Notes: a model not told the origin generated them from the letters alone. A DNA stretch of 64,000 nucleotides from a virus (IMGVR_UViG_3300028171_000090:32001-96000); one strand, 5' to 3'; numbered from the stretch's first letter, positions 12,704-64,000 are shown. Made by a program: numbers and translations.

Positions 12704-14353
12704 ATGAGAAAAGCGAGAGTAAAGCGAACCGGAAATCGAGTTCCAATAAAGTTCCCATTATATACGCTAAATATGCTGATAGCATATACGATTAGTCAAA
12801 ATGAGAAAATTACCCGCAGCGGATTGATGAATATAAAGAAAGTTGTTGGTATGATTGACCAGCAACCATACGATCAAGACTTTGCTTTGAAAGCACGTCT
12901 TAGATTCTTAGAGATGGCGTTAGATGCCAGATTAGACAGTGGAATTGAAAATCCATTAGTCTTAGTAGACTACTGCCGTGTACAACGATATGAAGATGTA
13001 TACGAAGATATTGTCGATGATATTAAACATATCGTCTTATCAAAGAAAGAGATTAAATATGTTAATGACATGATCAGTGACAAACTAGCTCACTGTTACA
13101 TGTATCTTCATAAAGATGAAATCATGGAGACTCTAGGTAAACTAGATACAGGTGATTTCGAAGACTTAGCTTCTGTTAAGAAGAAGTTAAAGAAGTCCAT
13201 TATTCATTTAATGACAGACATGAGAAAGTCTGAAGCAAATAATGATATGGAAGGTGTATTCTCATTACGAGAAGGTACATTTGAACGCGTTGTTAAATCA
13301 ACGGTAGAGAAACTACAAAACCCTGGTAATATCTTAAAGACCGGAATCCAAGACCTGAATGAAATATTAGCAGGAGGATTCCAAGCACAACGTTTCTATA
13401 TGTTTGCAGGTCTATCAGGTGGTTTCAAATCAGGTCTATTATTAAACCTGATGTATCAAATTCGACTGTTTAATAAAAACTATGTAACCAAAGACCCAGA
13501 CCGTACGCCGGCTATCTTATTGGTTACACAAGAAAACAGTGTGGAAGAAACAATTGAACGTTTATACAGCTTAGCTGTAGCAGATACAAATGATGATGAG
13601 TTGAAATTCAACTCACCTGAAGAAGCGATTCAACTTCTACGTAAGAAAGGTCGCTTAACGTTAACAGATGAAAATAATATCGATATTCTTGTAGAATATC
13701 GAGCAGGTCAAACAATTGATACAACTGACCTGTATAGTATCATTGAAGGTTATGAAGATTTAGGATATGAAGTAATCTGCCTATTTCATGACTATATTAA
13801 ACGTATTCGTTCCGCAACAAGAGACGGGCAAGAAGAACGTTTAAAATTAGGGGCGATTGTCGATGAGTTAAAAGCATTAGCTATCGATAAAGATATCCCA
13901 GTTATATCAGCGAACCAGCTGAACCGTGATGGTGCGAAGACAATTGACTCCGCTATGGAGTTCAATCAGAATGACTTAGCGAAATTACTAGGACGCTCTA
14001 ACGTGGGTGAATCTTGGAATACGATTGAGAATAGTGACTTTGCATGTATCATCAACCGAGAGTTGAAACAGTCAACTCAAAGAATGTATCTAACATTCAA
14101 ACGTATTAAGTTACGTGGAAAACCGTTATCAGAATTAACATACTTTAACCAACCGTTTGCAGAAACAAATACAATGCGTATTGAAACTGATTTAGGTGGT
14201 CAGAAGTTATCTGAAGAAACATTAGCAACAGACTTAGCCGAAGTAATCCCAATTAACACAGGTAAGATGGGACGAATGACGGCAAAAGAGCGCGAGCCTT
14301 TAACATTCACACGTACACCAAGTCGTGAGGAAAGGCTTGCAGATATTATATAA
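12704..14353 (+). CDS. dnaB: Replicative DNA helicase, DnaB family
   Basis: KTGIQDLNEILAGG, Walker A AGLSGGFKS, LLVTQENS, FHDYI, DIPVISANQLNR. Confidence 0.92.
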   Translation: MRKARVKRTGNRVPIKFPLYTLNMLIAYTISQNEKITRSGLMNIKKVVGMIDQQPYDQDFALKARLRFLEMALDARLDSGIENPLVLVDYCRVQRYEDVYEDIVDDIKHIVLSKKEIKYVNDMISDKLAHCYMYLHKDEIMETLGKLDTGDFEDLASVKKKLKKSIIHLMTDMRKSEANNDMEGVFSLREGTFERVVKSTVEKLQNPGNILKTGIQDLNEILAGGFQAQRFYMFAGLSGGFKSGLLLNLMYQIRLFNKNYVTKDPDRTPAILLVTQENSVEETIERLYSLAVADTNDDELKFNSPEEAIQLLRKKGRLTLTDENNIDILVEYRAGQTIDTTDLYSIIEGYEDLGYEVICLFHDYIKRIRSATRDGQEERLKLGAIVDELKALAIDKDIPVISANQLNRDGAKTIDSAMEFNQNDLAKLLGRSNVGESWNTIENSDFACIINRELKQSTQRMYLTFKRIKLRGKPLSELTYFNQPFAETNTMRIETDLGGQKLSEETLATDLAEVIPINTGKMGRMTAKEREPLTFTRTPSREERLADII

Positions 14354-14388
14354 AAAAGGGTAGGTAGAGATTCTCTACCTACACCCTT
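14352..14388. terminator. Terminator between converging genes
   Basis: GTAGGTAGAGA-T-TCTCTACCTAC with A6 on the left. Confidence 0.7.
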
Positions 14389-14819
14389 GGTATGTCTTCT
14401 AGGAACGCATAGTTCTTCGTTCTAGATAGACGTTCTTCACATAGGTTAAGTATCTTATTGATGACTTCAAGTCTATCAGGATGCATAACCTTTAATGTTT
14501 TGTATTTAAAGTTAAATGGGCTAGAGCATCTATTCACTCGTAATAGAATATACCATAAGTCCATTGTACCGTATAAGTCACGACTTAATATTTTAGGATT
14601 CTGATAATACTTATCGAATTCTTTGTCGTCTAACTTAACGTCGATACAAATATCAATTAAGAAATCCATATAGCTATCAATTGCATTGGATATCGGAAAG
14701 ATGTTCTCTCCGATACGTAATAGATAGTGAGTCGTAGACAATTGGATTTCACTCGTTGACCCTTCTGTTATTAATTCAGACAGGGTTGTTGTAGATTCTG
14801 GATTCGATGTTACAATCAT
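14379..14819 (-). CDS. Baseplate wedge-like protein (T4 gp53/LysM-like motif)
   Basis: YYQNPKILSRDLYGTMDLWYILLRVN resembles the RPD..S..LYG...LWW.I signature. Confidence 0.65.
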   Translation of the reverse strand: MIVTSNPESTTTLSELITEGSTSEIQLSTTHYLLRIGENIFPISNAIDSYMDFLIDICIDVKLDDKEFDKYYQNPKILSRDLYGTMDLWYILLRVNRCSSPFNFKYKTLKVMHPDRLEVINKILNLCEERLSRTKNYAFLEDIPRV

Positions 14820-14830
14820 GGGATAACCTC

Positions 14831-15184
14831 CTATACAGTTGTAAATTCAATTCGTTTCGGATTTCTATTTGCTATAAAGCAATTTAAACGAGTACCCAGC
14901 CAAACTTCACCGTTATAGGATTGAGACCCACTTCTAGGTGAAATGATATAGTTACAAGTGACGATACTTCCTTTGACTCGAGGTCTACAGGATACGTCAT
15001 TTTGTATCATGGCAGTATTGATCTGTCTTACTGTATCTTTGGATGGGGCTATTGGAATGAATGGCATAAGTTTTGGGATATTAATATGGATAGGGGAAGC
15101 ATCACGAACGTATTTGTGATAGTCCAAGTTAAATCCATTTTCCCAAATCTCTAACTCAATATCCGTCGGGTTTTCGAAGTTCAT
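14831..15184 (-). CDS. Small putative virion protein
   Basis: Start moved to ATG 15184 (AGAAAGGA RBS; near-match AACT-N6-TA at 15208-15219); IHINIPKLMPFI. Confidence 0.55.
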   Translation of the reverse strand: MNFENPTDIELEIWENGFNLDYHKYVRDASPIHINIPKLMPFIPIAPSKDTVRQINTAMIQNDVSCRPRVKGSIVTCNYIISPRSGSQSYNGEVWLGTRLNCFIANRNPKRIEFTTV

Positions 15185-15258
15185 TCGAATCATCCTTTCT
15201 ATCATATTAATAGATAGTTGAACTCGTCGGACGCAATCAAAAGGAAGGAAGTATCTAT

Positions 15259-16512
15259 ATGGCAATGATTACATTAAATCAAGGACAATCTGACGCACGA
15301 GCCAAACTTGTACTCTGGTGGAAAACGAAATTCAAACAGACATTCAAGTTACAAGGACCGGCAGGTACAGGTAAGACAACTTGTATCTATAGTATGATGG
15401 CTGAGGTTGGTCTAGATGTGCGAACGGAAGTATTATTCGCAACCTATGTAGGTAAAGCAACAATACCTTTACGTATGAATGGATTACAAGGAAAAACAAT
15501 TCATTCTACCATTTATGACTTCGGAGTAGAACGAGTAATGGATGATAAAGGTAACTTTAAGATTGGACGAGATGACCGTTATGTTACAAAACCAACATTC
15601 CGTAGACGTGGAAGTTTGGGACCAAAGATTAAGCTTATCGTAGTCGATGAAGCTGGTATGGTTCCAGATGATATGAAACGTGACTTGGAATCATTTGGTG
15701 TTCCTATTATTGCAATCGGAGACGAAGACCAATTACCACCAGTATTCGGTAAGTCTTCTTTCATTAAGAATCCTGATGCAGTACTATGGGAAATTGTACG
15801 ACAAAAAGAAGGAGACCCTATCATTACATTATCTGATATGGCTCGTAAAGGTGTTGATATCCCAGTAGGTGTCTATGGTCCACGCTGTATTGTGGTTGAT
15901 GAAGACGCTATGAAACATAACTGGATATTTAACAAATCTAACATCGTTATCTGTGGGAAGAATAAAACCCGTGAGCAGATTAACGATAGAGTGCGATATG
16001 ATATCAAAGGATATCGTTCACACTTCCCAATGGTGGGAGAAACAATGGTATGTCGTAAGAATAACTGGAAAGAGACTGTCGATGATATTCCATTAATCAA
16101 TGGTCTATTTGGTACAGTGGAATATGTCTATCGTGAAACATTTAATGGTAGCAAAGTGCATATCGACTTCCAGCCAGACTTTATGGAAGATGATTATTTT
16201 GCACATATTCCAATGGATTACAATTACCTAACATTACCAATGAAAGATAAGGCAACGTATAGATATGGAGATGGTAACCGTTTTGAATATGGTTATGCTT
16301 CCACATGTCACCTTGTACAAGGTAGTCAGTATGGTTCCGTTATGGTATTAGAAGAGAAAATCGGGGATGAATTATTCCACCGTAAGTGGTTATACACAGC
16401 TATTACCAGAGCGCAACATACGTTAATCATTGTGAAGCGAAAAGAAAAAGCCAAAACATATAATGGTTATACATCATCTAAGTGGTACGATAATATAGCA
16501 GCTAAAAGCTGA
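15259..16512 (+). CDS. dda: SF1B Dda/RecD-like DNA helicase
   Basis: GPAGTGKTT, IVVDEAGMV, IGDEDQLPPV, GYASTCHLVQGSQY, LYTAITRA. Confidence 0.9.
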   Translation: MAMITLNQGQSDARAKLVLWWKTKFKQTFKLQGPAGTGKTTCIYSMMAEVGLDVRTEVLFATYVGKATIPLRMNGLQGKTIHSTIYDFGVERVMDDKGNFKIGRDDRYVTKPTFRRRGSLGPKIKLIVVDEAGMVPDDMKRDLESFGVPIIAIGDEDQLPPVFGKSSFIKNPDAVLWEIVRQKEGDPIITLSDMARKGVDIPVGVYGPRCIVVDEDAMKHNWIFNKSNIVICGKNKTREQINDRVRYDIKGYRSHFPMVGETMVCRKNNWKETVDDIPLINGLFGTVEYVYRETFNGSKVHIDFQPDFMEDDYFAHIPMDYNYLTLPMKDKATYRYGDGNRFEYGYASTCHLVQGSQYGSVMVLEEKIGDELFHRKWLYTAITRAQHTLIIVKRKEKAKTYNGYTSSKWYDNIAAKS

Positions 16513-16529
16513 AGGGAGAATGAAAAATA

Positions 16530-17495
16530 ATGACAAACGAAATTAAGGTAGTAGCACACACAGACACTAGACAGGTAAATGTACGTAAAGTAAAAGCAGT
16601 ACGATTAGAAGAAAAGAAGCCATCAATCATTATTGATGCAGAAACTTCTAAACCTGTAGATGATATTCGTACAGCACGAGTATCACGTGTACCAGCTATG
16701 ACAGATAGCTTATTTAATATCTTAAATGGATTAACTCATTTAAAGCAGTTAATTAATGATAATGAAAAGATTGATATTGAAGATGTATTAAATGTAGTAT
16801 CCGAAGGTACGTTAAATACCTTCGTTACATATTTTATGGATACTCGTATTGATAGATTAAAACGTAGCGGTACATATGATATCGTAAACTTAATTGCATC
16901 GACATTACTATTTGTACATGATTACCTATACACATTAAAAGGTAAATCAATTGTCGATCCAAATGAAATCGATGTAGTGAGAGAACTCTTAACAATGCGT
17001 ACAGCTGATGTAGAGAAGTTCTATAGAGACGATTTCAACTTTGTAATGAAAGACTTTGCTGTTATGAATATGGGTGAGCACATTCCAAGTAAGAAGAAAC
17101 GCTATAAAGGTTCCCAAGTATTTATTAACTTAGGAAACGGAATGTTTAAAGCAATCCCTTATAAATATTATAAGAAGTTAGATAACATGTCTCATGTAGT
17201 GATGAATTACGTAATCCGTGAATATGACCAAAGTCATTCAGAAGGAGAACCTGATTACATCGTTCACTATGAGAAAGAAGTTATCGCTACAAGTGTAACA
17301 GATATCTTTAGAGAAATCTTTGAGTATTGTAGTAAGTTTAACTTCGTTAACATGGAATTAATACATACTGGTGCGGCACTAGAAGTAGAACTAGATGACG
17401 TATTAGTAAAATTCAAGAATGGGAAAAACTCAGAGTCCTTTAGCTCTATCTATGAGTTCCTATTTAAGTATGTTCCGGGAGGTTTCTACATATGA
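16530..17495 (+). CDS. Hypothetical protein carrying an IRTARVSR motif
   Basis: 321 aa ORF with RBS. Confidence 0.75.
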   Translation: MTNEIKVVAHTDTRQVNVRKVKAVRLEEKKPSIIIDAETSKPVDDIRTARVSRVPAMTDSLFNILNGLTHLKQLINDNEKIDIEDVLNVVSEGTLNTFVTYFMDTRIDRLKRSGTYDIVNLIASTLLFVHDYLYTLKGKSIVDPNEIDVVRELLTMRTADVEKFYRDDFNFVMKDFAVMNMGEHIPSKKKRYKGSQVFINLGNGMFKAIPYKYYKKLDNMSHVVMNYVIREYDQSHSEGEPDYIVHYEKEVIATSVTDIFREIFEYCSKFNFVNMELIHTGAALEVELDDVLVKFKNGKNSESFSSIYEFLFKYVPGGFYI

Positions 17496-17677
17496 GAGTC
17501 ACTAAAGATACAACGATGAATGACCTCTTTGGAAATGACAGGCTTACAGATAGTAAGCCTGTATTCATCTCTAAGAAAGAGCGAACACAACAATTGATAC
17601 AGAGTAAAGAATTCAAAGATGCTTTTAACCTGTATCATGGTAAAGGTAAACGAAAGAAAAAGAAGAAACGAAAGTGA
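17492..17677 (+). CDS. Small basic protein
   Basis: 61 aa, GGAGG RBS, ATGA overlap, GKGKRKKKKKRK tail. Confidence 0.6.
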   Translation: MRVTKDTTMNDLFGNDRLTDSKPVFISKKERTQQLIQSKEFKDAFNLYHGKGKRKKKKKRK

Positions 17678-17687
17678 GGAGAAACAA

Positions 17688-18008
17688 ATGAGTCCAGAAC
17701 AAATCGAATACGCATTCGAGAAATTCGGTGGTCCTATTAACATTGACCGATTACATTTAAACAATGGTCGTATGTGGACGCATCGTAAAGGTAACAGATT
17801 AAAAGAATGGAACCATAAATTATCCTTATTAATCTTTGAGGAATTTAAACCAGGTTCAGGAGATGTTATTGATCATGCAATCACGTATGATGCAATTGAT
17901 AGTATCTCATTTGAAACAAAAAGAAAGTATGACCCTGATACAGATCACCGTGATCCGATTGAGAAACATGAAGATCGGGAACCAGGTGTTATCATTCCTG
18001 CGGAATAA
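17688..18008 (+). CDS. Hypothetical protein
   Basis: Start moved to ATG 17688 after GAGGAG. Confidence 0.65.
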   Translation: MSPEQIEYAFEKFGGPINIDRLHLNNGRMWTHRKGNRLKEWNHKLSLLIFEEFKPGSGDVIDHAITYDAIDSISFETKRKYDPDTDHRDPIEKHEDREPGVIIPAE

Positions 18009-18025
18009 ACTTTTATACTGAGTAC

Positions 18026-18037
18026 AACAGTATTATA
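18026..18037 (+). promoter_or_regulatory. Putative AACA-N6-TA promoter
   Basis: AACAGTATTATA in intergenic gap. Confidence 0.4.
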
Positions 18038-18091
18038 GAGGACGTATACTCACCCGAATAGATAGTTGTAAAATTTAACTTAAAATATAAC

Positions 18092-18110
18092 TATACATTA
18101 TAAAGGTGAG
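18092..18110 (+). promoter_or_regulatory. Putative early promoter
   Basis: TATACATTATAAAGGTGAG. Confidence 0.7.
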
Positions 18111-18151
18111 CAACAATAAAATTATATAAGAAACCTTAGGAGGAATTTATT

Positions 18152-18742: not shown

Positions 18743-18759
18743 GAACTCTTAGTATACAT

Positions 18760-18796
18760 AAGAGTATAAGCATTTGCTTATACTCTTTTATTTTTT
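18760..18796 (+). terminator. Intrinsic terminator
   Basis: AAGAGTATAAGC/GCTTATACTCTT plus T-tract. Confidence 0.8.
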
Positions 18797-18826
18797 GTAA
18801 GAATTATTCAAGGAGGAACATAGCAA

Positions 18827-21211: not shown

Positions 21212-23656
21212 ATGGTTACAAAAAAGAAAACAAAGAAAACCGATGAAATAAGAGTAGCAAGAGTAAAACGTGTCGAAGAATTTAATATCTTTGATTACAA
21301 TAAAGCTCTGATGATGATATTTAATAAGAACGTCAACTTAGCACGTTCCGTACCCCATGTATTTGATGGGTTAAAAGTAGTAGAACGTCGTGTACTATAC
21401 GCGATGTTCTTTGACCATAAAGGTAAAAAGAAAAAGGTTGCTGAGATTATTGGTACCGTTATTGGTAAGTATCACCCTCATGGTGATTCTTCACCATATG
21501 GTACATTAGTAGGACTAGGGCAACATTGGAACATCTTCCCGCTTATGATTAAACCAGATGGAAACTATGGTTCTCAATATGGTGACACAGCAGCGGCTAT
21601 GCGTTACATTGGAGCACAAATGACAGAGTTTACAGTAGATGCTTACTTCTCTGAATGGAGTAAGACTGTAACAGACTTCAATGAATCCTATACAGGGGAA
21701 TACATTGAACCAGAATATCTACCATCAAAATACCCAATGTTATTCATTAAGAGTATCTTCGGTATTGGTAAAGGTTTAATGACAGGTATTCCACCGTATA
21801 ACTTAATTGAACTATTTGACTTAACAATCAAACTGATTGATAACCCAGATTTAAAGAAAGTATGGTTAGTACCTGATATGCCAAACCGTTGTCTAATTGT
21901 CGATACAGACTTTAAGACAATGTGTGAAACAGGAGAAGGTAAGTTCCGTACTCGTGGTGAACTGATTGTAGAAGATGGGGATTTAATCATTACATCATTA
22001 CCATACGGAGTTTCAATGGACCCATTAGTTGCAAAGATTGTAGAACTTGTTAATGATAAGAAGTTCGAAGGTATTGCAGATATTTATGATGAGTCTCCAA
22101 GAAAAGAGAGAAAGAAAAAAGGGAAAGGTGTAGCTTCAACAGAGCCTGCCAAATTCCGTACTCGTATTAAACTCAAGAAAGGATTCAATCCTGAGAAAGT
22201 GAAAGAAGCGTTGTATCGTTCCACTCCGTTGGAGTCTACACATGTGGTACGATTAGAAGCAACATTCGACTATCAGAACTATCGTTATAGTTTAAAATCA
22301 GGATTGTTAGATTGGATTGAGTTACGTCGTGAAACAAAACGTCGTATCTATGCAAACCAATACTCTACAATTAGTAGACGTATTCATATTCTTGAAACAT
22401 TAATCTCTATCTTATCTAGTAAGGGCGGAGATGCAAAGTTATCCAAACTTGCAAAAGCTTCTCGTAACCGTGGTCAAATGGTTGAGAAGTTAATCAAGGA
22501 CTTTAAGCTTACTGATATCCAAGCAGAAGCAATCGCTGATATGAAAATGTACCAGTTATCAATAGATAACATGGAGTCATTTAAAACAGAGAAGAAAGAC
22601 CTTGAAGCAAAATTAAAAGAAGTTTATGATAAGATGTCAGATGACTCTATCGTAGATGAAGAAATCAAAGCAGAGTTACGTGAAGGGAAAAAGAAATATG
22701 GACGCAAACGTTTATGTGATGTAGTGTCTATTTCTAGTGAACCTCACGTACCAGATACAAACCATACTATCGTTATCACAAAGAAAGGGCTTATTAAGAA
22801 GCTTCCTAACAATGTAGACGGGGTAGGGTTCATCGAACCTAAAGATAAAGCAACTCAGATTATGAAATTGAATAATAAAGAGTCTTTATTGGTATTTGAT
22901 GAAACAGGAAAAGTATATTCAATCGCAGTCAATGATATACCTGAATCAGCATTAGATGAAGCAGGGGTATTATTAAATAGATTAATCGGTATCGGTTCTC
23001 ACCGTATCGTATCTATTCTAAAGAAATATGATGACTGTGATAAGAAAGATGATAAAGGTCCATTCTATGTATTTGCTACAGCAAACGGAATGATTAAACG
23101 TTCTCATTGTGGTAACTACAGTAAAGTAACAAAAGGTGGACTTGTCGGTATTGTATTAAAGAGTACCGATAGACTGGTATCTGTTATTGAGGTGAAAGGT
23201 AATAAAGACATTGTCTTATATACTCGCTCAGGACACGGTATCAGATACAATACAAAAGAAATTCCAGCTACGTTACGTATGAGTTCTGGTGTAATCGGCT
23301 CACGATTAACAGAAGAACAAATGCATGTAACGGGTGGTGTAAAAGGTATGACTCAAATCATGCGAGGAGATAAGTACCTATTCATGTTAACAAACAAAGG
23401 TAATGGTAAGAAATCACCACTGGTTAACTTCACTGATATGAAACGTGGAGATGAGAACGTTCAGTTGTCAGACTTACGTGAAGATGAAATAATCGTGGGA
23501 ATCAAACCTGTCAAAGAAGATGCAATTATTGATGTATTTACTTCTGAGAAGACAGTAGAGATTAACATTACTGATGTACCTGAACTAACTCGTAGAGCGA
23601 AAATGAAAAAGCTTATGGGAGTTCGTAAAGGAGAAAACATTATTGATATAAACTAA
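21212..23656 (+). CDS. gyrA: Type IIA topoisomerase subunit A (GyrA/ParC-like) with C-terminal pinwheel repeats
   Basis: DGLKVVERRVL, YHPHGDSS, AAMRY catalytic Tyr; start moved to ATG 21212 after AGGAGG. Confidence 0.93.
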   Translation: MVTKKKTKKTDEIRVARVKRVEEFNIFDYNKALMMIFNKNVNLARSVPHVFDGLKVVERRVLYAMFFDHKGKKKKVAEIIGTVIGKYHPHGDSSPYGTLVGLGQHWNIFPLMIKPDGNYGSQYGDTAAAMRYIGAQMTEFTVDAYFSEWSKTVTDFNESYTGEYIEPEYLPSKYPMLFIKSIFGIGKGLMTGIPPYNLIELFDLTIKLIDNPDLKKVWLVPDMPNRCLIVDTDFKTMCETGEGKFRTRGELIVEDGDLIITSLPYGVSMDPLVAKIVELVNDKKFEGIADIYDESPRKERKKKGKGVASTEPAKFRTRIKLKKGFNPEKVKEALYRSTPLESTHVVRLEATFDYQNYRYSLKSGLLDWIELRRETKRRIYANQYSTISRRIHILETLISILSSKGGDAKLSKLAKASRNRGQMVEKLIKDFKLTDIQAEAIADMKMYQLSIDNMESFKTEKKDLEAKLKEVYDKMSDDSIVDEEIKAELREGKKKYGRKRLCDVVSISSEPHVPDTNHTIVITKKGLIKKLPNNVDGVGFIEPKDKATQIMKLNNKESLLVFDETGKVYSIAVNDIPESALDEAGVLLNRLIGIGSHRIVSILKKYDDCDKKDDKGPFYVFATANGMIKRSHCGNYSKVTKGGLVGIVLKSTDRLVSVIEVKGNKDIVLYTRSGHGIRYNTKEIPATLRMSSGVIGSRLTEEQMHVTGGVKGMTQIMRGDKYLFMLTNKGNGKKSPLVNFTDMKRGDENVQLSDLREDEIIVGIKPVKEDAIIDVFTSEKTVEINITDVPELTRRAKMKKLMGVRKGENIIDIN

Positions 23657-37940: not shown

Positions 37941-39056
37941 ATGACACTTAAAATTGGAGTAATCGGTATTGGATCAGCAGGGAATCAGTTAGCAAACTTA
38001 GCATCAGAAGCAGGCTTCGATGTAATTGCAATTAATAGTACTGAGGCTGACTTAATGACAATGAACGAATCAGTTGAAAAGATGCTTATTGGGGAAGACG
38101 GATGTGGGAAAGACCGCAATCGTGCCAAAGCATTTGTGAAACAAAAATATAAACCAATCATTGGTGATATACAAACACTTCTAGGCGAGTGCAACGTAAT
38201 CGTTGTAGCGGGTTCTACAGGTGGAGGTACAGGCTCAGGGATGATTCCGATTATGACGGATTTACTACGTTCCCTTGTAAAAGGTCCTGTATACTTAAAC
38301 GCATTAATCATTCCAAGTGTAAAAGAATCTCCAGTAGCTCAAAAGAATACAATTGAGTGTATGGCTGAGATTAAGAACTTGGACTTAGGTTATCTAATGT
38401 ATGATAACGAAACAGTGAAAGGTCCAATTACAGAAGTATTCAAAACAATCAACAATGCTTTTGTAAATGATCTGAAAGTATTCAGAGGTGACTTATGTGA
38501 AACAACTGCTTACGGTGTAATGGATGACCGTGACAGATTGAAATTAATTGGTTCGAAAGGACTTATCACAGTAAGTAAAGTCTCTGGTATTAAAGAGAAC
38601 TATTTAAATGATAGAGATGTAAACGAATTAATGATTACATCAATCAAAGGAAGTAACAATGTGGATATCGAACGTGATCGTGCAATCAAACGTGTCGGTG
38701 TAATCCATACATTGCCTGAATCATTATTAAAGACAATTGATAGCTATTACACGAAGATGAAAGAAGTATATGGTGAGCCATATGAAATCTTCGAACATAT
38801 CAATTGCATTGGAGAATCTGAAGCAGGTTCTATCGTAACAATTATGGCTGGAATGTCTTACCCTGCAACACGCATAGAGGACATAGCAGAGAAGTTAAAC
38901 AGCATGAAAGAAAACTTAACTCGTAGCCGCAAGGATAACCTGGGTGAAATCGCAGGTTCTTTAGACTGGTTAAATAGCGAGGAAGATGATACAACAATCA
39001 AAGATTTAAATGAAGAACCTGAGACAGATGCAGATTCTATCTTAGGAAATTATTAA
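37941..39056 (+). CDS. Phage tubulin/FtsZ-family GTPase (PhuZ/TubZ-like)
   Basis: GIGSAGNQ, AINST, GCGKD, GGGTGSG signature, acidic C-tail. Confidence 0.92.
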   Translation: MTLKIGVIGIGSAGNQLANLASEAGFDVIAINSTEADLMTMNESVEKMLIGEDGCGKDRNRAKAFVKQKYKPIIGDIQTLLGECNVIVVAGSTGGGTGSGMIPIMTDLLRSLVKGPVYLNALIIPSVKESPVAQKNTIECMAEIKNLDLGYLMYDNETVKGPITEVFKTINNAFVNDLKVFRGDLCETTAYGVMDDRDRLKLIGSKGLITVSKVSGIKENYLNDRDVNELMITSIKGSNNVDIERDRAIKRVGVIHTLPESLLKTIDSYYTKMKEVYGEPYEIFEHINCIGESEAGSIVTIMAGMSYPATRIEDIAEKLNSMKENLTRSRKDNLGEIAGSLDWLNSEEDDTTIKDLNEEPETDADSILGNY

Positions 39057-39141
39057 TTAGCTATTAATGTATAAGCACAGTGTAAGGGGAAGTGGACATC
39101 CATCCATTCCCCTTATAGGTGTATATAATTAATGAATATAT

Positions 39142-39153
39142 AACATATTACTA
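39142..39153 (+). promoter_or_regulatory. Putative AACA-N6-TA promoter
   Basis: AACATATTACTA. Confidence 0.5.
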
Positions 39154-39196
39154 ATGAAAACCAAATTAAAGGTATATAACCGAGGAGGAAATAAAA

Positions 39197-40162
39197 ATGT
39201 CAAACGCAATCAAAGCAATCTACAAATTGGATCAATTAGCTCAAAGAAAGGCTCCTAAGCACAAACGTAACCGCCGTGGTAATGGAAACGGATACGGTCA
39301 TGGTAGCCATAGCAGCATTCCTTTAAAGACTCTATTGAAAACAAAGACTTTAAAGAAAATCGATCGCGATGAATTAGTAGATGAGTTAGACGGTAACATG
39401 AAAGAGTTTAAATCAAACTTATTCAAATACTTCCAACAAGGATACTCTAAACTGTTTGAAGATATCGATGATATCGCAGATGTATTCTTAAACAACAAGT
39501 TCGCAAGAGCTTTAACTGACATCTGTAAAGATGAAGGTGACATTGATCCACTATTAGTATTCACTATCAGTGAATTACATTTAAAGAAAGTCTTCCAAGA
39601 TGATGAGAAAGTATTAAAACGTTACTTACAAGTAATCGCTGACTCAGAGGAAGATCGTATTAAGAAATTACGTAAAGTATTAAAAGTATCAAACTTAGAT
39701 GCTTTACTTATCATTCTATTAGCACAATCTTACAAAGGTTGCCCACGCCGATTCATGCGTGACCGCACTTACCAGTTCCTAAACGTTCTATACGAAGCAG
39801 TAGCTTCTGAAGAATTAGGATACAAAGATGTAGAGAAAGCAATCAAGATTGTGCATGGTCGTAACATGGAAGAATTCATGTTAACCGTATTATTAGAGAA
39901 AGCTCAAAACCGTAACAACTTAGATGACCTTGAAAAAGAAGGATTCGACTTAGTTACTGAGTGGGCTTTAAAAACAATGAATAAAATGGACAACGATGAG
40001 CGTCGTTCTATCTTGAAAGAGTACACAAAAGCTCGTAGACAGAACGCTCATGTGAAACGTCGTATTAACTTCATGCAATTAGATGGTGAAGAATACCGTC
40101 GTATCAAGTTAACAGTTGACCGTTTAGTACGTAACAACATTAGCAAAGATTTATTAAGCTAA
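39197..40162 (+). CDS. Helical-repeat hypothetical protein with basic N-terminal patch
   Basis: 321 aa, own promoter motif and terminator. Confidence 0.8.
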   Translation: MSNAIKAIYKLDQLAQRKAPKHKRNRRGNGNGYGHGSHSSIPLKTLLKTKTLKKIDRDELVDELDGNMKEFKSNLFKYFQQGYSKLFEDIDDIADVFLNNKFARALTDICKDEGDIDPLLVFTISELHLKKVFQDDEKVLKRYLQVIADSEEDRIKKLRKVLKVSNLDALLIILLAQSYKGCPRRFMRDRTYQFLNVLYEAVASEELGYKDVEKAIKIVHGRNMEEFMLTVLLEKAQNRNNLDDLEKEGFDLVTEWALKTMNKMDNDERRSILKEYTKARRQNAHVKRRINFMQLDGEEYRRIKLTVDRLVRNNISKDLLS

Positions 40163-56973: not shown

Positions 56974-57043
56974 GTTTATCAATGGTAACACCGGATGGAG
57001 ATAAAACTCCATCCGATAATATAATAGAAAGAGGTTATTAAAA

Positions 57044-57598: not shown

Positions 57599-57611
57599 GG
57601 GGGAAATAATA

Positions 57612-58136: not shown

Positions 58137-58158
58137 CTAATTAGGAGGAATTTTAACA

Positions 58159-58665: not shown

Positions 58666-58676
58666 TGATTAGGGGG

Positions 58677-58709
58677 AGGGTAAGCAAAAGCTTACCCTTA
58701 TTTTTTTTT
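58677..58709 (+). terminator. Intrinsic terminator
   Basis: AGGGTAAGC-AAAA-GCTTACCCT plus T-tract. Confidence 0.85.
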
Positions 58710-58742
58710 GGGTTCATAGTAAATATTCACTCCTTCTATAAA

Positions 58743-58761
58743 TATACATTATAGTAGCGAA
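58743..58761 (+). promoter_or_regulatory. Putative early promoter for RNAP beta gene
   Basis: TATACATTATAGTAGCGAA. Confidence 0.65.
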
Positions 58762-58806
58762 TGATGTAAACTATAACATCATAACTATAGGGAGTGTGAT
58801 TTTAAA

Positions 58807-60867
58807 ATGTCAATTAAAAACATTAAAGAGCAGATGCTAGAGTTAGATCGAAAGTATGAAGGAAAAGATGACATTCTAGGAAAGAATGTATTGACGATGG
58901 CGAATCGTACAAACTCATCTCGTGCAATCATGGTAAGTAGTCAGTTAGATCAGAACGTAGTTCTACTGAATCCAGAGATTCCGAAGATGTATACCAACTA
59001 TGAGAATATAGTTGGAGAATTTAGTTCTGCTTATTATCGAGCGGAAGCACAATTAGTCGTGGTAGGAAAAATTCAGAAGTTTGAAGATAATCCTGACCAC
59101 TTATATACATTACTCGTATTCAATACAGAAACACAAAAGTTCGATGTTATTGAAAAGAGAAGTAATGAACGCTTAACAGAGTCTTACGGGTATAAATATA
59201 ATACTCAGAAATTAGACTCAAAGGAAATAGATGATACAATTGAAGCAGGTGAAGTATTATTTAGCAGTACTTCATTTGATGAAAATATGAACTATCGTTA
59301 TGGTATCAATGTAAACTGTATGTATGGTATTGATAACCGAACGATAGAGGATGCGATTGTTATATCAGAATCTCTTCGAGATGGATTAAAGTCTATCGAA
59401 GTAGAGAACGTTCGCATCTCACTAAATGATAATGACCTTCTCATCAATATGTATGGAGGGGAAGATGGATATCGAGCATTCCCTGATATTGGAGAGATGA
59501 TTAATAAAGATACAATCTTGGCTTGTAAGCGTCGAATTACATACTCTCAATCTCTATATGATTTAAAGTATGAAAATATGCAGAAGCCTAACTTTAGAAA
59601 TGATACAACGTTCTATGCACAAGGAAAAGTAGTTGATATTAATATCTATTGTAATAAACCATATGACGAAATTCCAAAAGCAAAGTACAATAAACAAATT
59701 ATGAAATACTACGATAATGAATTACGTTATCATAGAGAAGTCGTACAAACGCTTGGAGAGATTATGAAGACTGGTCAATATACAGAAGACCTAGACTTTA
59801 TGTACAAGCGTTCGAAAGATATCTTAGACCCAACTTGTAGTTGGAAAGATAGCAATAACTCAACATTCAGTAACATGGTTATTGAGTTCGTTGTTGAGAA
59901 AGAATCTGGTGTTACAATCGGACAAAAACTTACAGGACGCTTCGGTGACAAAGGGGTTATCAGTCAGATTGTTCCTGATGATGAAATGCCTTTCACAGAA
60001 ACAGGTCTTCGTGTAGATGCCATATTCAACGTTCTAGGTGTTGTTAACCGTTTAAATCCAGGTCAGTTATATGAAGTGGAGTTAAATTTTATTGGACACC
60101 GAGTAAGAGAACGATTAGCAGAAATGGCATCATTAACTGATAAAGAAAACTTCTTATTCGATATCATTAATGATATTAATACAACTCAGGCTAATGCATT
60201 AATTAACTATTATTCACCATTAGCTGAGGATGAGAAGCTTGCCTTCTTTGAAGATATTGATAAGAATGGTATCATGATACATCAACCACCGATGTATGAT
60301 AATATGACACTTGATAAGTTTGAGTTTATTTATGACAAGTATGGATTCGAACCATATACTTGCTATGTAAACAAATTTGGTCGCAAGATCAAAATGCTAA
60401 ACAAAGTTGTTGTAGGAAGCAAATATATTCTGAAGTTGAAACATACACCGAAAGGTAAGTTCTCAACTCGTAGTACCGGATACTCAAACAGTAAAGACCT
60501 ACCATCTAAGTCTATTGCAAATAAACATCATCGTTCTATTTATCAAAAGACACCAGTACGTGTAGGGGAAATGGAGTATTCTAACTTACTGATGACACAA
60601 CGACCAGACCTATTAGCGTATATGTCTATGCTATATAGTACGTCTGTAATCGGTCGTCGTGATACAGGTCAGTTATATGAAAACAATGTATTAGATTTAG
60701 AGAATATTGAAATGTCAGATAATGCAAAGAACCGTGCAGCAGAGATTGCAACAGTGTACTTAAAGTCTATTGGTATCGGATTAGAATTCGAGATTGAAGA
60801 CGGGGAAGAAGTAGCTGATGAAACTCAATTAAACGGGGTTGTATTTGAAGATGAAGATGAGGAGTAG
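58807..60867 (+). CDS. rpoB: Multisubunit RNA polymerase beta subunit, C-terminal half (probably non-virion RNAP)
   Basis: SSRAIM, EDAIVISE, GQKLTGRFGDKGVISQIVPDDEMP, NRLNPGQLYE, GSKYILKLKH, RVGEME. Confidence 0.93.
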   Translation: MSIKNIKEQMLELDRKYEGKDDILGKNVLTMANRTNSSRAIMVSSQLDQNVVLLNPEIPKMYTNYENIVGEFSSAYYRAEAQLVVVGKIQKFEDNPDHLYTLLVFNTETQKFDVIEKRSNERLTESYGYKYNTQKLDSKEIDDTIEAGEVLFSSTSFDENMNYRYGINVNCMYGIDNRTIEDAIVISESLRDGLKSIEVENVRISLNDNDLLINMYGGEDGYRAFPDIGEMINKDTILACKRRITYSQSLYDLKYENMQKPNFRNDTTFYAQGKVVDINIYCNKPYDEIPKAKYNKQIMKYYDNELRYHREVVQTLGEIMKTGQYTEDLDFMYKRSKDILDPTCSWKDSNNSTFSNMVIEFVVEKESGVTIGQKLTGRFGDKGVISQIVPDDEMPFTETGLRVDAIFNVLGVVNRLNPGQLYEVELNFIGHRVRERLAEMASLTDKENFLFDIINDINTTQANALINYYSPLAEDEKLAFFEDIDKNGIMIHQPPMYDNMTLDKFEFIYDKYGFEPYTCYVNKFGRKIKMLNKVVVGSKYILKLKHTPKGKFSTRSTGYSNSKDLPSKSIANKHHRSIYQKTPVRVGEMEYSNLLMTQRPDLLAYMSMLYSTSVIGRRDTGQLYENNVLDLENIEMSDNAKNRAAEIATVYLKSIGIGLEFEIEDGEEVADETQLNGVVFEDEDEE

Positions 60868-60890
60868 ACCATTGGTCTACTCTTCTTTTT
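60859..60890 (+). terminator. Intrinsic terminator
   Basis: GAGGAGTAGACC-ATT-GGTCTACTCTTC plus T-tract. Confidence 0.8.
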
Positions 60891-60970
60891 TACATATATT
60901 TGGTAATAAATAAAAATAATGACAACTAATTATTATAGAAAGAAAATACATTTCCTGAGGAGGAACTATA

Positions 60971-62014
60971 ATGGTTAGAAAGAATGTATCTGTAAAGCAT
61001 ATTAGACCACATCTACTACAGGTAGATGATATGGCATTAAAATTTACAGAATATGATTTACCTGTAAAGGCTACAAGTGGATCATTTAAAAAAGGATTAT
61101 CATTGCCTGCGGCATCTTATCGTACAATGGGTGTAACAGATGAGCAATGTAAAGAAGTACAGGATACATATAAGATTCCTGAAGACATTCATGTAAGTGC
61201 AGTTGTCCGAGGTGAATATAACGTTCGACGTAATAATGATACTAAAGATGGCATATACCGTGAATTTGTTGAAGATAAAAACGGTAAAGATATATTACTA
61301 CATGCAATGCATCCAACACTTATGACGTTTAGTGAATTCGATAAACTGAATGATAAGCATTTAATCGAACTATTCAGTCAAGATGAATTTGCAGCGGTAG
61401 GTGTTGTCTCTTGGTATGAATTTGGTTTGGTTCCAGTTAACGGAATGCCGGATCATGCAGGAGTACTTAATGCAAAATTAGTATTACGCAATGCATTAAA
61501 ACGTGTAGAAGTAGAAAAAGAAGAAGCTCTAATGAGAGCCAATAAAGTAACAAAATTAAAAGGTTTCCATGATTTTGAAATATGGGTACAGTCTGATAGC
61601 CCAGCTGCGGTTTTACCTGATGCTCGTATGCTATGGACACCATTGTCCGCAGACTTTGCATCTCAGGTTAAAGTGTCAGATAAAGTTATAACAAAAGCTG
61701 TCGTACAAGGAGCGCTTATATCAAAAATTAAACCTGGTGATGGGGGCGTGTACAAATATCTTGAAACGAGAAGTCATATTGCAGAGCCGACTAGCTATTT
61801 CCTTAAATTAACATTAGCAGCTCCGGCGACATACTCTCGTGAAACATTTGAGATTATGCGTACAAACTTAGAAGAAACAGCAAAACAATTTATCCGAGTT
61901 AATAGTCTTGTGATACCACATTTACTTGATTTTGATATGGACTCTATGACTATTAATGATGGTTATGTTGCAGGGTATCCTACATTATATGTAGTAGTAC
62001 CAAATGTTATTTAA
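60971..62014 (+). CDS. Hypothetical protein; C-terminal LYVVVP resembles family A
   Basis: 347 aa, RBS. Confidence 0.75.
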   Translation: MVRKNVSVKHIRPHLLQVDDMALKFTEYDLPVKATSGSFKKGLSLPAASYRTMGVTDEQCKEVQDTYKIPEDIHVSAVVRGEYNVRRNNDTKDGIYREFVEDKNGKDILLHAMHPTLMTFSEFDKLNDKHLIELFSQDEFAAVGVVSWYEFGLVPVNGMPDHAGVLNAKLVLRNALKRVEVEKEEALMRANKVTKLKGFHDFEIWVQSDSPAAVLPDARMLWTPLSADFASQVKVSDKVITKAVVQGALISKIKPGDGGVYKYLETRSHIAEPTSYFLKLTLAAPATYSRETFEIMRTNLEETAKQFIRVNSLVIPHLLDFDMDSMTINDGYVAGYPTLYVVVPNVI

Positions 62015-62101
62015 TATAAAGAAGTAACACTTTTCTCTTAAAAAATTAGAACTTATAATTAATATACTCAGATATAAAAAGTGGAGAGGGGACCATTAAC
62101 A

Positions 62102-62578
62102 ATGGCTACTAAAACAAATAAAGAGGCTAAAGCAACAACTAGAAAGACTACAAAGAAAGTTTCCGTACAAAAAGTAGATGCTATCAAAACAGTATCAGTA
62201 CGTAAACGTAAAGCAGGTTTATTAATTAAAGGTGGGTTAACGAGTAAGATAAACTTAGTTCGTTTAACTCGTAATGAAAACTATCTACCAAATAATTATA
62301 AAACAGTATTAGATATGGTACGTAAAGGGTATGCTACTTCTCGCGAACTAGCTGATGTGAATCCATTAAAACGTGCAAAAGCATCATCTGATACAACTAG
62401 AAATTACTATTATAGAATATTGAATGTGATGGCGGATATCGGGTTACTTAATAAAGAACGTCATTCATATCATAATGGAGTAACTTGTATTGTAGAAAAC
62501 AAGTATACTGCAATCGAATTGGAACCTATTAAAATGGGACCAGGGCAATACTTAGACGTAAACATCCGTCTACAATAG
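62102..62578 (+). CDS. Basic putative winged-helix DNA-binding protein
   Basis: K/T-rich N-tail, ATSRELAD..ILNVMADIGLL pattern; start moved to ATG 62102. Confidence 0.55.
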   Translation: MATKTNKEAKATTRKTTKKVSVQKVDAIKTVSVRKRKAGLLIKGGLTSKINLVRLTRNENYLPNNYKTVLDMVRKGYATSRELADVNPLKRAKASSDTTRNYYYRILNVMADIGLLNKERHSYHNGVTCIVENKYTAIELEPIKMGPGQYLDVNIRLQ

Positions 62579-62582
62579 TACG

Positions 62583-62613
62583 AGATAGGGAGAAATCCCT
62601 ATCTTTATTTTTT
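62583..62613 (+). terminator. Intrinsic terminator (GAAA loop)
   Basis: AGATAGGGA-GAAA-TCCCTATCT plus T-tract. Confidence 0.85.
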
Positions 62614-62656
62614 GTCATTTTTATACAATAACAATAAATTCAACATTTAATTTGAT

Positions 62657-62675
62657 TATACATTATATAGGTGAG
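62657..62675 (+). promoter_or_regulatory. Putative early promoter for ligase
   Basis: TATACATTATATAGGTGAG, identical to 37801. Confidence 0.75.
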
Positions 62676-62733
62676 ATTGGATAATGAATCCAAAAGCTAC
62701 TAATGTATAAAGCTACATAGAGGAGGAATAACA

Positions 62734-64000
62734 ATGACTGAAATTAGAGTAGCGAGAGTCAAACGAATTAAGCCAGATGAACTAACAGTAGCTCCTGAAG
62801 AATTATTTGCAAAAGCATTGAAGCTTGCAAAGAAAGGAAAGCTACGTCAAGCGAAGAATACGCTGAAGAAAGCGGGCGTTGAATTATATATGGAACGCTT
62901 CGTTAAAGAAGGTAAAGAAAAGAAAATAGATGAAATGCTTGATAGTGTTGAAGACATTATCAAGGCATTAAAAATCATATACGAAAATGGAAAGGAGTTT
63001 GTAAGCGATAAGATATATGACATAACATTAGATAAATTTAAGTCTTATCGCGCTGAGCCAATTGAGGCTACATTATTTGTTGGTAGACGTACGAAAGATA
63101 CGACACATGAGTTTCCACTATTACGTGGTACATTAGACAAGGCTCATTTTATCTATACAGCAGATAACACACAAAGGAAAGAAGGTACGAAAGATGTTGA
63201 ATCCTTCATTAGAAGTTGGATGGCTAGAAGCCGTGGACCTCTTCGTATCAGATTATCATTAAAGTATGATGGCGTATCTGTCATCTTAGAAATAGATAGT
63301 GTAACAGGTAAAGTTGTATCAGCAATCACTCGTGGTGATGATGGTAATGGAACAGACCTAACACACTTATTTACAAATGTAAGATATCCGAATGCCTTAA
63401 ATGAAATGGGGTTAAACTTCGGATTGAAGACAGAGTTAATTGTAACAAAAGCAAACCGTGATTTATACATGGAAGAACGAGGAAAGAGTTATGCAAACTG
63501 TCGAAGCGCGGCAGTTAGTATTGTATCAGCTAGTAATGGAGCCAAGTATGCAAAGTACTTAACACCAGTTCCATTGTATGCCGTAACAGATACCGATGAG
63601 GAAGTATCCTATGCGGTAATAAACAAAATGTTTGCACAGAACTTAGCACTATCATTTATTGAGTTAGAAGTAACATCGGTAAAAGAAGCGATGGCTAAGA
63701 TTCATGACTTCATAGCAGACATTCGAGTAAAGCGTCCAGACTTAGGATTCGCAATTGATGGTATCGTTATCGATGTAATCAATGATGAGATTCGTGATGA
63801 GTTTGGAAGAAAGAATGCAATTAATAAATATCAGGTAGCTTACAAGTATCCACCCGATGAAGTGCAGACGACTGTTAAAGGATTCGAAGTAACCGTAGGT
63901 CGTACAGGATTATTAACACCGATCCTTTTCTATGATCCGATTGAACTAAATGGTACAATCCACAATCATAGTACACTATCATCTTATGAGAGATTTAGTA
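62734..64000 (+). CDS. ligA: NAD-dependent DNA ligase, partial (runs off window)
   Basis: Not in ORF track; hand translation gives SDKIYD, LSLKYDGVS (KxDG), ITRGDDGNG, IDGIV, VAYKYP, VGRTGLLTP; GAGGAGG RBS. Confidence 0.92.
   Translation, partial: MTEIRVARVKRIKPDELTVAPEELFAKALKLAKKGKLRQAKNTLKKAGVELYMERFVKEGKEKKIDEMLDSVEDIIKALKIIYENGKEFVSDKIYDITLDKFKSYRAEPIEATLFVGRRTKDTTHEFPLLRGTLDKAHFIYTADNTQRKEGTKDVESFIRSWMARSRGPLRIRLSLKYDGVSVILEIDSVTGKVVSAITRGDDGNGTDLTHLFTNVRYPNALNEMGLNFGLKTELIVTKANRDLYMEERGKSYANCRSAAVSIVSASNGAKYAKYLTPVPLYAVTDTDEEVSYAVINKMFAQNLALSFIELEVTSVKEAMAKIHDFIADIRVKRPDLGFAIDGIVIDVINDEIRDEFGRKNAINKYQVAYKYPPDEVQTTVKGFEVTVGRTGLLTPILFYDPIELNGTIHNHSTLSSYERFS

Follow-up and report, generated by a model that had tools for sequence, protein, structure and literature searches.

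A shared basic peptide at protein termini

The window, a stretch of 64,000 nt of phage DNA, encodes several unrelated proteins that carry the same short basic peptide near an end of the chain. The sequence-only reading had placed this peptide in GyrA, DNA ligase, DnaB and a 321-aa protein, and all four positions proved correct. These genes and two possible weak variants are as follows.

12704-14353, + strand: DnaB-like helicase (Pfam divDNAB/DnaB_C); motif 12704..12736 at the extreme N-terminus, MRKARVKRTGN, with M-RKARVKR at 12704-12727
16575..16616, + strand: 321-aa protein (gene 16530-17495), copy 1, VNVRKVKAVRLEE; VRKVKAVRL, the 'RKVKAxRL' flavour; 12.1 bits
16659..16700, + strand: 321-aa protein, copy 2, DDIRTARVSRVPA; IRTARVSR at 16665-16688; 14.2 bits
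21242..21283, + strand: GyrA (Pfam DNA_topoisoIV; gene end 23656), DEIRVARVKRVEE behind a Lys-rich leader; EIRVARVKR at 21245-21271
60974..61003, + strand: 347-aa protein, VRKNVSVKHI, possible weak variant, outside the top matches when scanned with the 11-copy profile
62183..62212, + strand: 165-aa protein (gene 62081-62578), IKTVSVRKRK, possible weak variant, profile score -2.6
62737..62778, + strand: NAD-dependent DNA ligase (716 aa, 62734 to beyond the window end), TEIRVARVKRIKP, residues 2-14; EIRVARVKR at 62740-62766

An AGGAGG lies 8 nt before ATG 21212, the probable true start of GyrA, and counted from there the motif would occupy residues 12-20. In the AF2 model of the ligase, residues 1-18 have pLDDT <50 and no secondary structure, and they precede a confidently folded domain, so the tail is predicted to be disordered. 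The 321-aa protein had been named as a possible hub for the tagged enzymes; it carries two copies of the motif itself.

Five further carriers lie beyond the window on the same contig. Their identities come from matches to g105, g142, g132 and g270 of AR9, the nearest studied relative.

L003:8895-10841, - strand: PolB-N, 648 aa; C-tail AIRKARVQYV (partial) and EIRKVKATRLSE
L003:10913-12007, + strand: 364-aa charged protein; N-terminus MKLRIAKVKRVEP
L004:7585-9411, - strand: nvRNAP beta-N, 608 aa (AR9 g105), two copies; C-tail KLRIAKVVRVDP and ARKVKATRLED, which ends the protein
L005:14437-15954, - strand: nvRNAP beta'-N, 505 aa (AR9 g270); C-tail SIRQVRVKRT
L006:16440-17315, - strand: 291-aa protein; C-tail IRKARVYRV

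All motif counts refer to 125 kb of a ~223-kb genome, with 157 ORFs. The wider expression R.[AV][KR][AV].R (R-x-[AV]-[KR]-[AV]-x-R), fitted post hoc on data already seen, gave 11 matches across nine proteins, while the chance expectation was a mean of 0.16 in whole-protein shuffles and 0.18 in 20-residue block shuffles, with a maximum of 2. A six-frame scan placed 11 out of 11 matches in true coding frames and none in wrong ones. The narrower expression proposed from the sequence, R[VKT]ARV[KS]R, is enriched as well, with 4 matches against none in 300 shuffles. EIRVARVKR is the sole 9-mer common to any two proteins of the 157 ORFs, and of four 8-mers common to different ORFs, three are motif words. 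Profile scores are bimodal: the 11 copies, on which the profile was itself trained, score 11.5-15.9 bits, and the next best match reaches 2.9 bits. Thus, the shared peptide is real and more extensive than was first noted.

The consensus, aliphatic-[RK]-x-[AVI]-[KRT]-[AVI]-x-[KR]-aliphatic, combines basic and aliphatic residues. Each copy lies within 55 residues of the nearest N- or C-terminus (P ~4e-4 when counted by protein), and 5 out of 11 are C-terminal. The copies sit on flexible, strongly basic tails with Lys-rich linkers, and a copy is often doubled. GyrA and ligase encode EIRVARVKR with synonymous differences in 4 out of 9 codons (ATA/ATT, GCA/GCG, GTA/GTC, CGT/CGA), and the remaining copies vary in their codons too, which bears out the initial suggestion of selection at the protein level.

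The weaker echoes pointed out earlier, KTVSVRKR and RKNVSVKH, fared less clearly. They score at background level with the 11-copy profile, but are similar to the RKVTVRR flavour seen in a 68% relative. An orthologue of the 165-aa protein (L027) has IIKHVTTRRK at the equivalent site.

Within the 125 kb, the carriers are DnaB, GyrA, NAD-ligase (LigA), PolB-N, nvRNAP beta-N, nvRNAP beta'-N and three proteins of no assigned function; those with an assigned function are all DNA- or RNA-transaction proteins. No copy occurs there in virion RNAP subunits or identified structural proteins, nor in UvsX, Dda, SbcCD and GyrB. We take the peptide to be a putative, so far undescribed address or docking tag.

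Conservation among relatives and absence from AR9

The motif passes the conservation check suggested with the sequence-only reading, being kept in environmental orthologues of GyrA, ligase, DnaB, PolB-N, nvRNAP beta-N and two families of no assigned function. In six families, a basic/aliphatic peptide is retained at the same termini down to ~40-45% identity. DnaB orthologues begin with MRRISVRRLDE (P0307) or MAMKKVFLKRK (P0306), and those of GyrA carry IKQIQVKRVEQ (P0127), IRKIKVVKL (P0129) or KIIKVRQL (P0132). Ligase orthologues start with MTQIRKVTVRRL, MKKVKIKRIKG, MKHIKVKRLK or MKQIKIKRH, and a 333-aa orthologue of the 321-aa protein (L036) has two to three N-terminal IKVKVKK copies. In the PolB-N tree, the motif-bearing tails all fall inside one clade (support 99/99). 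Motif-like tails also occur at the ends of HNH endonucleases of three relatives.

The AR9 proteome (76,046 residues) contains no regex match, and its best profile score is 4.9 bits. The AR9 DnaB has no motif, and the AR9 ligase is without the 50-aa extension. Every copy sits within a terminal extension that is missing from the AR9 orthologue, and these extensions are clade-specific. In line with the remark that no such extension is known on bacterial homologues, the motif is absent from the cellular GyrA and LigA homologues among the matches listed.

Copies within one genome are more alike than orthologous copies across genomes, that is, they show concerted variation. Within-genome pairs are identical at a mean of 5.27 out of 16 positions and between-genome pairs at 3.78, where the set labelled 'R1' pools up to three related contigs; none of 5000 label permutations reached this difference. 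As an example, in this phage the 364-aa protein agrees with the nvRNAP tail at 10 positions; in L030 the corresponding figure is 8. The two 364-aa orthologues agree at only 4. Genome-wide Lys versus Arg usage may account for part of this similarity.

A candidate clamp and other explanations

One gene next to the PolB-N carrier may encode a partner for the peptide.

L003:8260-8901, - strand: gp45/PCNA-like clamp candidate, 213 aa; start ATG and PolB-N stop overlap by 7 nt

Its ESM Atlas model, a single model with pTM 0.57, shows TM scores of 0.66-0.69 to gp45, PCNA and beta-clamp clusters. Searches of Pfam, PHROGs and PDB profiles and tblastn returned no match to it. A gene of similar size occupies the same position in four relatives (L037, L041, L042, L043), and AR9 g129, a weak match (hhalign E 1.3e-3, probability 19%), is probably its counterpart after PolB-N. 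Since a similar gene is thus found in L043, which is motif-free, and probably in AR9, the clamp candidate and the motif differ in phyletic pattern. Additionally, its charge is near neutral (net +2), so it is no obvious partner for a +4 peptide.

Clamp-binding motifs (the PIP box, QL[SD]LF and the gp45-binding tails of T4 gp43, gp33 and gp55) are similar to the phage motif in being flexible-terminus peptides on polymerases, ligases, helicases and T4 late-transcription factors. Among clamp clients, polymerases commonly carry their motif at the C-terminus and ligases at the N-terminus. Here too we found such peptides on the replicative polymerase and other DNA enzymes, namely in the PolB-N C-tail, the ligase N-tail, the DnaB N-terminus and the nvRNAP C-tails. 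Clamp systems have one ring-shaped hub and many clients, and in this phage a clamp-like gene adjoins the polymerase gene. In contrast to Qxx[LIM]xx[FY][FY], QL[SD]LF and the hydrophobic T4 tails, the motif is basic/aliphatic with neither Gln nor an aromatic anchor, and Gln-x-x-aliphatic-x-x-aromatic occurs in none of the 11 copies. GyrA and DnaB are outside the classical clamp clients, and we know of no gyrase or multisubunit RNA polymerase core subunit that is a clamp client.

The explanation we favour, with a probability of roughly one half, is that a short linear motif at the termini gathers unrelated enzymes on one shared phage-encoded receptor, most likely the clamp candidate. We infer that a single receptor exists and that it is a protein; its identity with the gp45/PCNA-like clamp candidate is speculative. 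In this scheme, the motif on the flexible, Lys-rich terminal extensions of DNA-replication and late-transcription proteins would recruit them to one phage protein at replicating phage DNA, the candidate being the clamp-like protein from the gene that overlaps the PolB-N stop. The result would be a toolbelt as in T4, where the polymerase, gp33 and gp55 dock on gp45 by terminal tails. In T4, late transcription is coupled to the clamp through gp33 and gp55.

Other terminal peptides offer partial parallels. The SSB C-terminal tip (DDDIPF) and the acidic tails of T7 gp2.5 and T4 gp32 likewise organise replication proteins round one partner, but with the opposite polarity: the basic tail here is on the clients, whereas the acidic tail there is on the hub. 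No SSB was identified in the 125 kb of the ~223-kb genome. The T4 capsid-targeting sequence is also a peptide of ~10 residues common to unrelated phage proteins, but it is only N-terminal, has a final Glu, undergoes cleavage by the prohead protease and occurs on packaged proteins. We rejected this type of signal, as 5 out of 11 copies are C-terminal, and the carriers include non-virion RNAP orthologues while the virion RNAP orthologues are motif-free. A MinD/FtsA-type membrane-targeting amphipathic helix was rejected too: on inspection of the 11 copies, the aliphatic residues are scattered round the helical wheel. The small beta-branched residues would favour an extended strand rather than a helix.

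Instead of docking on a protein receptor, the tails might hold the enzymes directly on phage DNA (possibly modified or uracil-containing) or on phage RNA, acting as basic arms or 'molecular sleds'. Such a role would suit carriers that all, where a function is assigned, act on DNA or RNA, and tails that are basic, flexible and often duplicated, with Lys-rich linkers; homing endonucleases bear similar ones. Adenovirus pVIc and other short basic peptides slide on DNA, and the strand with which ribbon-helix-helix proteins read DNA shows a similar alternation of basic and aliphatic residues. Like classical nuclear localisation signals, pVIc is a short transferable basic peptide that takes cargo to DNA or a DNA compartment, but neither needs fixed aliphatic spacing; to our knowledge, bacteria and phages have no importin-like receptor. 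Non-specific binding leaves unexplained this fixed beta-branched aliphatic spacing, the stretches of 9 to 12 identical residues in unrelated proteins of one genome and the pair-specific flavours, and AR9 enzymes function without such tails. A ribbon-helix-helix strand was rejected: the model shows no secondary structure in the ligase tail, which lies outside any such fold, and C-terminal copies end the protein, with no two following helices. We regard direct nucleic-acid binding as doubtful. A terminal signal for import into, or retention in, a phage-built compartment enclosing phage DNA is somewhat less likely still. Its cargo would be replication and late-transcription enzymes as well as selfish homing endonucleases, and helicase, ligase, topoisomerase, nvRNAP and DNA polymerase do mirror the imports reported for the chimallivirus nucleus (PMC13282480). 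The cargo of PicA/Imp1 import, homing endonucleases included, is of the same kinds, and split multisubunit RNA polymerases, split PolB and tubulin are common to both lineages. The copies at extreme termini, like most protein-targeting signals, the absence of the motif from virion RNAP subunits, the motif-like tails on HNH endonucleases of three relatives and the PhuZ/TubZ-like tubulin of the clade all fit this explanation. The AR9 feature tables annotate no tubulin, and BLAST found no AR9 match to that of this phage. Against a compartment signal, this phage is AR9-like, and the 125 kb of the ~223-kb genome yielded no recognisable chimallin, PicA or other importer; the proteins there of at least 500 aa are assigned elsewhere except for two (1019 and 892 aa). 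AR9-like phages are counted among the jumbo phages without chimallin (PMC13282480). Chimallivirus cargo is recognised by folded surface patches, so that import works without terminal signals (PMC12908238, PMC13282480). We rejected cargo of the PicA/Imp1 type, as the shared feature here is a terminal peptide, predicted to be disordered, and not a folded patch. UvsX, Dda and SbcCD, which would also be expected to need access to DNA, are motif-free.

Docking on a host factor (a chaperone, protease adaptor, host SSB or host RNA polymerase) that recruits or protects the enzymes appears improbable. DnaK-type chaperones generally prefer basic-plus-aliphatic peptides, and the flavour differs by lineage, as expected with differing hosts, but a general chaperone or degradation tag would not be limited to DNA- and RNA-transaction proteins. 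As for chance resemblance or functionless remnants of short DNA duplications, the expressions were fitted post hoc, the patches are short and the AT-rich genome is rich in Lys and Arg codons. Nevertheless, this reading is refuted and keeps next to no weight, given 11 matches against 0.17 expected, all terminal and none in wrong frames, the synonymous codon differences among copies, and the conservation at the same termini to ~43% identity alongside absence from an AR9 proteome twice as large.

A possible address for phage DNA

A broader reading, which we consider tentative and distinctly less probable than even, would make the peptide a transferable, terminal 'DNA-factory address' of an AR9-like clade of environmental jumbo phages. 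One peptide code in two or three flavours would gather helicase, gyrase, ligase, DNA polymerase and nvRNAP on one receptor. This could be a clamp, through which late transcription would be coupled with replication, or else the gate to a compartment not made of chimallin. Homing endonucleases would have copied the tag to gain access.

We know of no linear signal by which phage proteins are addressed to the site of replication. Nucleus-forming phages are stated in reviews not to use terminal signals (PMC12908238, PMC13282480). A 9-residue tag on replication and late-transcription enzymes would offer a handle for finding the hub or gate by peptide pull-down. In an uncultured clade, it could further serve to map the phage replisome and the transcription machinery, and to direct foreign proteins to phage DNA. 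Should the clamp prove to be the receptor, this phage would provide a second, T4-independent example of a physical link between late transcription and the replication clamp, here with the tails borne by the polymerase's own core subunits.

The phage and the carriers of the peptide

The window corresponds to the minus strand of bases 30442-94441 of one 125,074-bp contig with ~35% G+C. Gene content identifies the virus as a large AR9/PBS1-like phage: the contig encodes a phiKZ/AR9-type split multisubunit RNA polymerase (PHROGs 2987, 2943, 2962, 3295, 3233), a split family-B DNA polymerase, GyrB, GyrA, an NAD-dependent ligase, a divergent DnaB, a Dda/RecD helicase, UvsX and SbcCD, as well as a PhuZ/TubZ-like tubulin and a polyphosphate kinase. 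Its nearest studied phages are the Bacillus phages BpSp, AR9 and PBS1, at ~30% protein identity and with gene order kept. A 223,016-bp contig on record encodes an identical PolB-N protein, and relatives are found on contigs of 229-231 kb. Our contig is incomplete (~56% of the phage genome), so all counts of motif carriers are lower bounds. In IMG/VR, scans with GyrA, the ligase and a ligase alignment found no close relatives (matches at <=25% identity only), and a genome-contig scan with a relative's PolB-N gave no match.

The polyphosphate kinase (L005:5660-7858:-) is a full-length polyphosphate kinase 1, with 4/4 PPK domains and E down to 4e-72. The tubulin gene is followed by a gene of 311 to 321 aa; the two are also paired in a 41%-identity relative (window 37941-40162; L036:18626-20976) and have no AR9 counterpart by BLAST.

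Carriers of the short basic/aliphatic terminal peptide are listed below (L003-L006 are loci elsewhere on the same contig; nvRNAP, non-virion RNA polymerase).

Window 12707-12727: DnaB, N-terminal copy
Window 21245-21271: GyrA, N-terminal copy
Window 62740-62766: ligase, N-terminal copy
Window 16530-17495: 321-aa uncharacterised protein beside the Dda helicase, two N-terminal copies (one at 16665-16688)
Divergent from and adjoining PolB-N: 364-aa charged protein, N-terminal copy
L003:8895-10841:-: PolB-N, one full and one partial C-terminal copy
L004:7585-9411:-: nvRNAP beta-N, 608 aa, orthologue of AR9 g105, two C-terminal copies
L005:14437-15954:-: nvRNAP beta'-N, 505 aa, orthologue of AR9 g270, C-terminal copy
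L006:16440-17315:-: 291-aa uncharacterised protein, C-terminal copy

The sequence-only reading had proposed that unrelated DNA-transaction enzymes share an N-terminal peptide. This was confirmed and extended to 11 copies in 9 proteins. The four strong copies that it named (GyrA, ligase, DnaB and the 321-aa protein) lie exactly where it placed them, and EIRVARVKR of GyrA and ligase indeed differs synonymously in 4/9 codons. These codon differences reject recent DNA duplication or gene conversion for this pair. The weaker echoes at 60971 and 62081 gained no support from the motif profile and count at most as possible weak variants. For GyrA, AGGAGG lies 8 nt upstream of ATG 21212, which is probably the real start and places the motif at residues 12-20.

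The peptide comes in three flavours, [EI]R[VKT]ARV[KS]R, RKVKA[TV]RL and KLRIAKV[KV]RV[ED]P, each recurring on different proteins; every two-copy protein pairs two distinct ones. We saw no motif on the virion RNAP orthologues (AR9 g264, g078), nvRNAP beta-C, GyrB, UvsX, Dda or SbcCD, nor on the tubulin or any protein recognised as structural. The 321-aa and 364-aa proteins have no Pfam match, and an Atlas search of the former gave no usable result; the sole match of the latter is PHROG 27823 (function not known). A 347-aa protein has Pfam matches at chance level only, the 291-aa carrier a sub-threshold match to DUF488-N3a (E 0.0025), and PDB sequence searches of three other uncharacterised proteins were without match.

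The motif was counted in a simple set of 157 ORFs from the whole contig, where the originally suggested regex R[VKT]ARV[KS]R gave 4 matches against 0 in 300 shuffles. The wider R.[AV][KR][AV].R, which was fitted post hoc, gave 11 matches in the 9 proteins, against shuffle means of 0.16 (whole protein) and 0.18 (20-residue block) and a maximum of 2. In a six-frame scan 11/11 matches fell inside real genes, and all 11 copies lie <=55 residues from a terminus (P about 4e-4 by protein). Three measures, which we rate as less biased than the wider regex, all agree. EIRVARVKR is the only 9-mer common to any two proteins of the set, and motif words make up 3/4 of its shared 8-mers. The AR9 proteome, twice as large, gave 0 regex matches, and its top profile score was 4.9 bits (11.5-15.9 bits in this phage). 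Chance is thus excluded as the origin of the motif, of which we found no description in the literature searched. The only non-motif shared 8-mer, SFTREDLL, occurs in a 1019-aa protein (L005:43-3102:+) and in an 825-aa protein (L006:8108-10585:-) that matches a virion-structural PHROG.

Conservation and concerted variation in relatives

A check of orthologues, which the sequence-only reading had suggested, showed that a motif-like peptide is kept in GyrA, ligase, DnaB, PolB-N and uncharacterised families. Ligase orthologues (34-68% identity) begin MTQIRKVTVRRL, MKKVKIKRIKG, MKHIKVKRLK or MKQIKIKRH; those of GyrA carry IKQIQVKRVEQ, IRKIKVVKL or KIIKVRQL; and those of DnaB begin MRRISVRRLDE or MAMKKVFLKRK. 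Down to ~43% identity, the PolB-N tails of relatives mostly bear two terminal copies (e.g., KVIKISR...RKVKIKRIV* and KKIKVKR...KTIKVKRII*), and homologues at <=38% identity have no such tail. In a maximum-likelihood tree of PolB-N cores, which omits 31 short or unanchored rows, every motif-bearing tail falls in one clade of 16 (support 99/99); outside it are AR9 plus 13 others, all devoid of a motif tail. Among uncharacterised proteins of relatives, a 358-aa protein (L037) begins MSIRKVKVRRVDS, a 362-aa protein (L030) begins MEGNRLKLKISKKV, and a 333-aa protein (L036) has two to three IKVKVKK copies.

Similar terminal tails are found on HNH or AP2 homing endonucleases of three relatives. Several relatives' HNH endonucleases have motif-like basic ends, e.g., RKIKIYKSKI* and KLKIKKSKKK*, and HNH endonuclease genes interrupt the nvRNAP beta-N gene in one relative (L027:17328-20653) and gyrB in another (L036:6495-9983).

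Each lineage has its own flavour, common to its different proteins. In the 68% relative, ligase (N-terminus) and nvRNAP (tail) share RKVTVRRL, and in L030 the nvRNAP tail shares RLKLKI[KS]KK with the 362-aa protein. For 25 copies in four genome groups, pairs shared 5.27 of 16 positions within groups versus 3.78 between groups, a figure to which lineage-wide Lys or Arg usage contributes and in which one group combines as many as three related contigs; the difference was reached in 0/5000 label permutations. Non-orthologous copies in one genome are more alike than orthologous copies across genomes, as would be predicted from co-evolution with a single receptor; old short-patch gene conversion could mimic the pattern.

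Added tails and their possible receptor

Alignments to AR9 orthologues begin after, or end before, the motif-bearing segment. The leaders of the ligase (50 aa) and the 364-aa protein (110 aa) and the tails of nvRNAP beta-N (~97 aa) and PolB-N (55 aa) are all missing from AR9. Most copies are flanked by Lys-rich linkers. The ligase was modelled with AlphaFold2 from an alignment of 13 sequences. In this model (mean pLDDT 82), residues 1-18 have pLDDT <50 and no secondary structure, and a confident helical domain follows. A ribbon-helix-helix at the ligase N-terminus was rejected, as the tail is modelled as disordered, and a membrane-targeting amphipathic helix was rejected on residue pattern. 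A virion-packaging signal is unlikely, since the motif occurs on nvRNAP orthologues and on none of the vRNAP orthologues.

The sequence data support, in kind, the earlier proposal of a docking or targeting motif. We suggest that this terminal short linear motif would bring enzymes of DNA and RNA transactions to a single common receptor, and that this receptor might be a candidate gp45/PCNA-like clamp encoded next to PolB-N. In T4, the polymerase and the late-transcription proteins gp33 and gp55 bind the gp45 clamp through their tails, and clamp motifs usually sit at polymerase C-termini and ligase N-termini; for these reasons the clamp is our leading, if speculative, candidate. However, the motif resembles no known clamp peptide, and GyrA and DnaB would be unusual clamp clients.

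The ATG of the putative clamp gene, a 213-aa ORF (L003:8260-8901:-), overlaps the PolB-N stop by 7 nt. An ESM Atlas model of the exact protein matched gp45, PCNA and beta-clamp clusters with TM 0.66-0.69 over ~185 residues, and an Atlas feature search led to phage clusters partly carrying the gp45 sliding-clamp family. Pfam, PHROGs, a PDB profile search and tblastn gave no sequence support for clamp identity. A similar-sized gene occupies the same position in four relatives (L037, L041, L042, L043), and AR9 g129 weakly shares the N-terminal signature. The putative clamp gene appears to predate the motif.

Just upstream of the nvRNAP beta-N gene, ~5.3 kb past the window end, lie two tandem, very acidic paralogues (107 aa, net charge -19, L004:9827-10150:-; 109 aa, net charge -11, L004:9433-9762:-), a pair kept in relatives L027 and L030. 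An AF2 model (pLDDT 83) matched mostly HU/IHF chains at the top of the Foldseek listing (prob 0.9-1.0, E about 0.01-0.1, TM 0.4-0.57). The basic DNA-binding arms are lost, and AR9 has a normal HU at that locus. The paralogues might mimic DNA or act as a chaperone for basic proteins. A complex prediction of both with the nvRNAP beta-N tail scored 0.00 with all chains poorly folded, which speaks neither for nor against binding.

Alternative roles of the tails

Direct binding of the tails to DNA or RNA would account for their charge and for the carrier set, but it leaves the exact identities and the fixed aliphatic spacing unexplained, and we consider it rather unlikely. In favour of an address tag for a replication compartment, the set of carriers corresponds to the cargo of the chimallivirus nucleus (PMC13282480), and selfish endonucleases of relatives bear the tag. 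Nevertheless, no shell protein was seen in 125 kb of the ~223-kb genome, AR9-like phages are listed among jumbo phages without chimallin (PMC13282480), and terminal signals play no part in phage-nucleus import as known so far (PMC12908238, PMC13282480). Such a tag therefore seems unlikely, and docking on a host partner is more improbable still.

The DnaB-like helicase of AR9 (g007, L033:3583-5268:+) ends in ...DSGIPF, resembling the C-terminal tip of bacterial SSB (DDDIPF). The AR9 replisome may be organised by a different terminal peptide.
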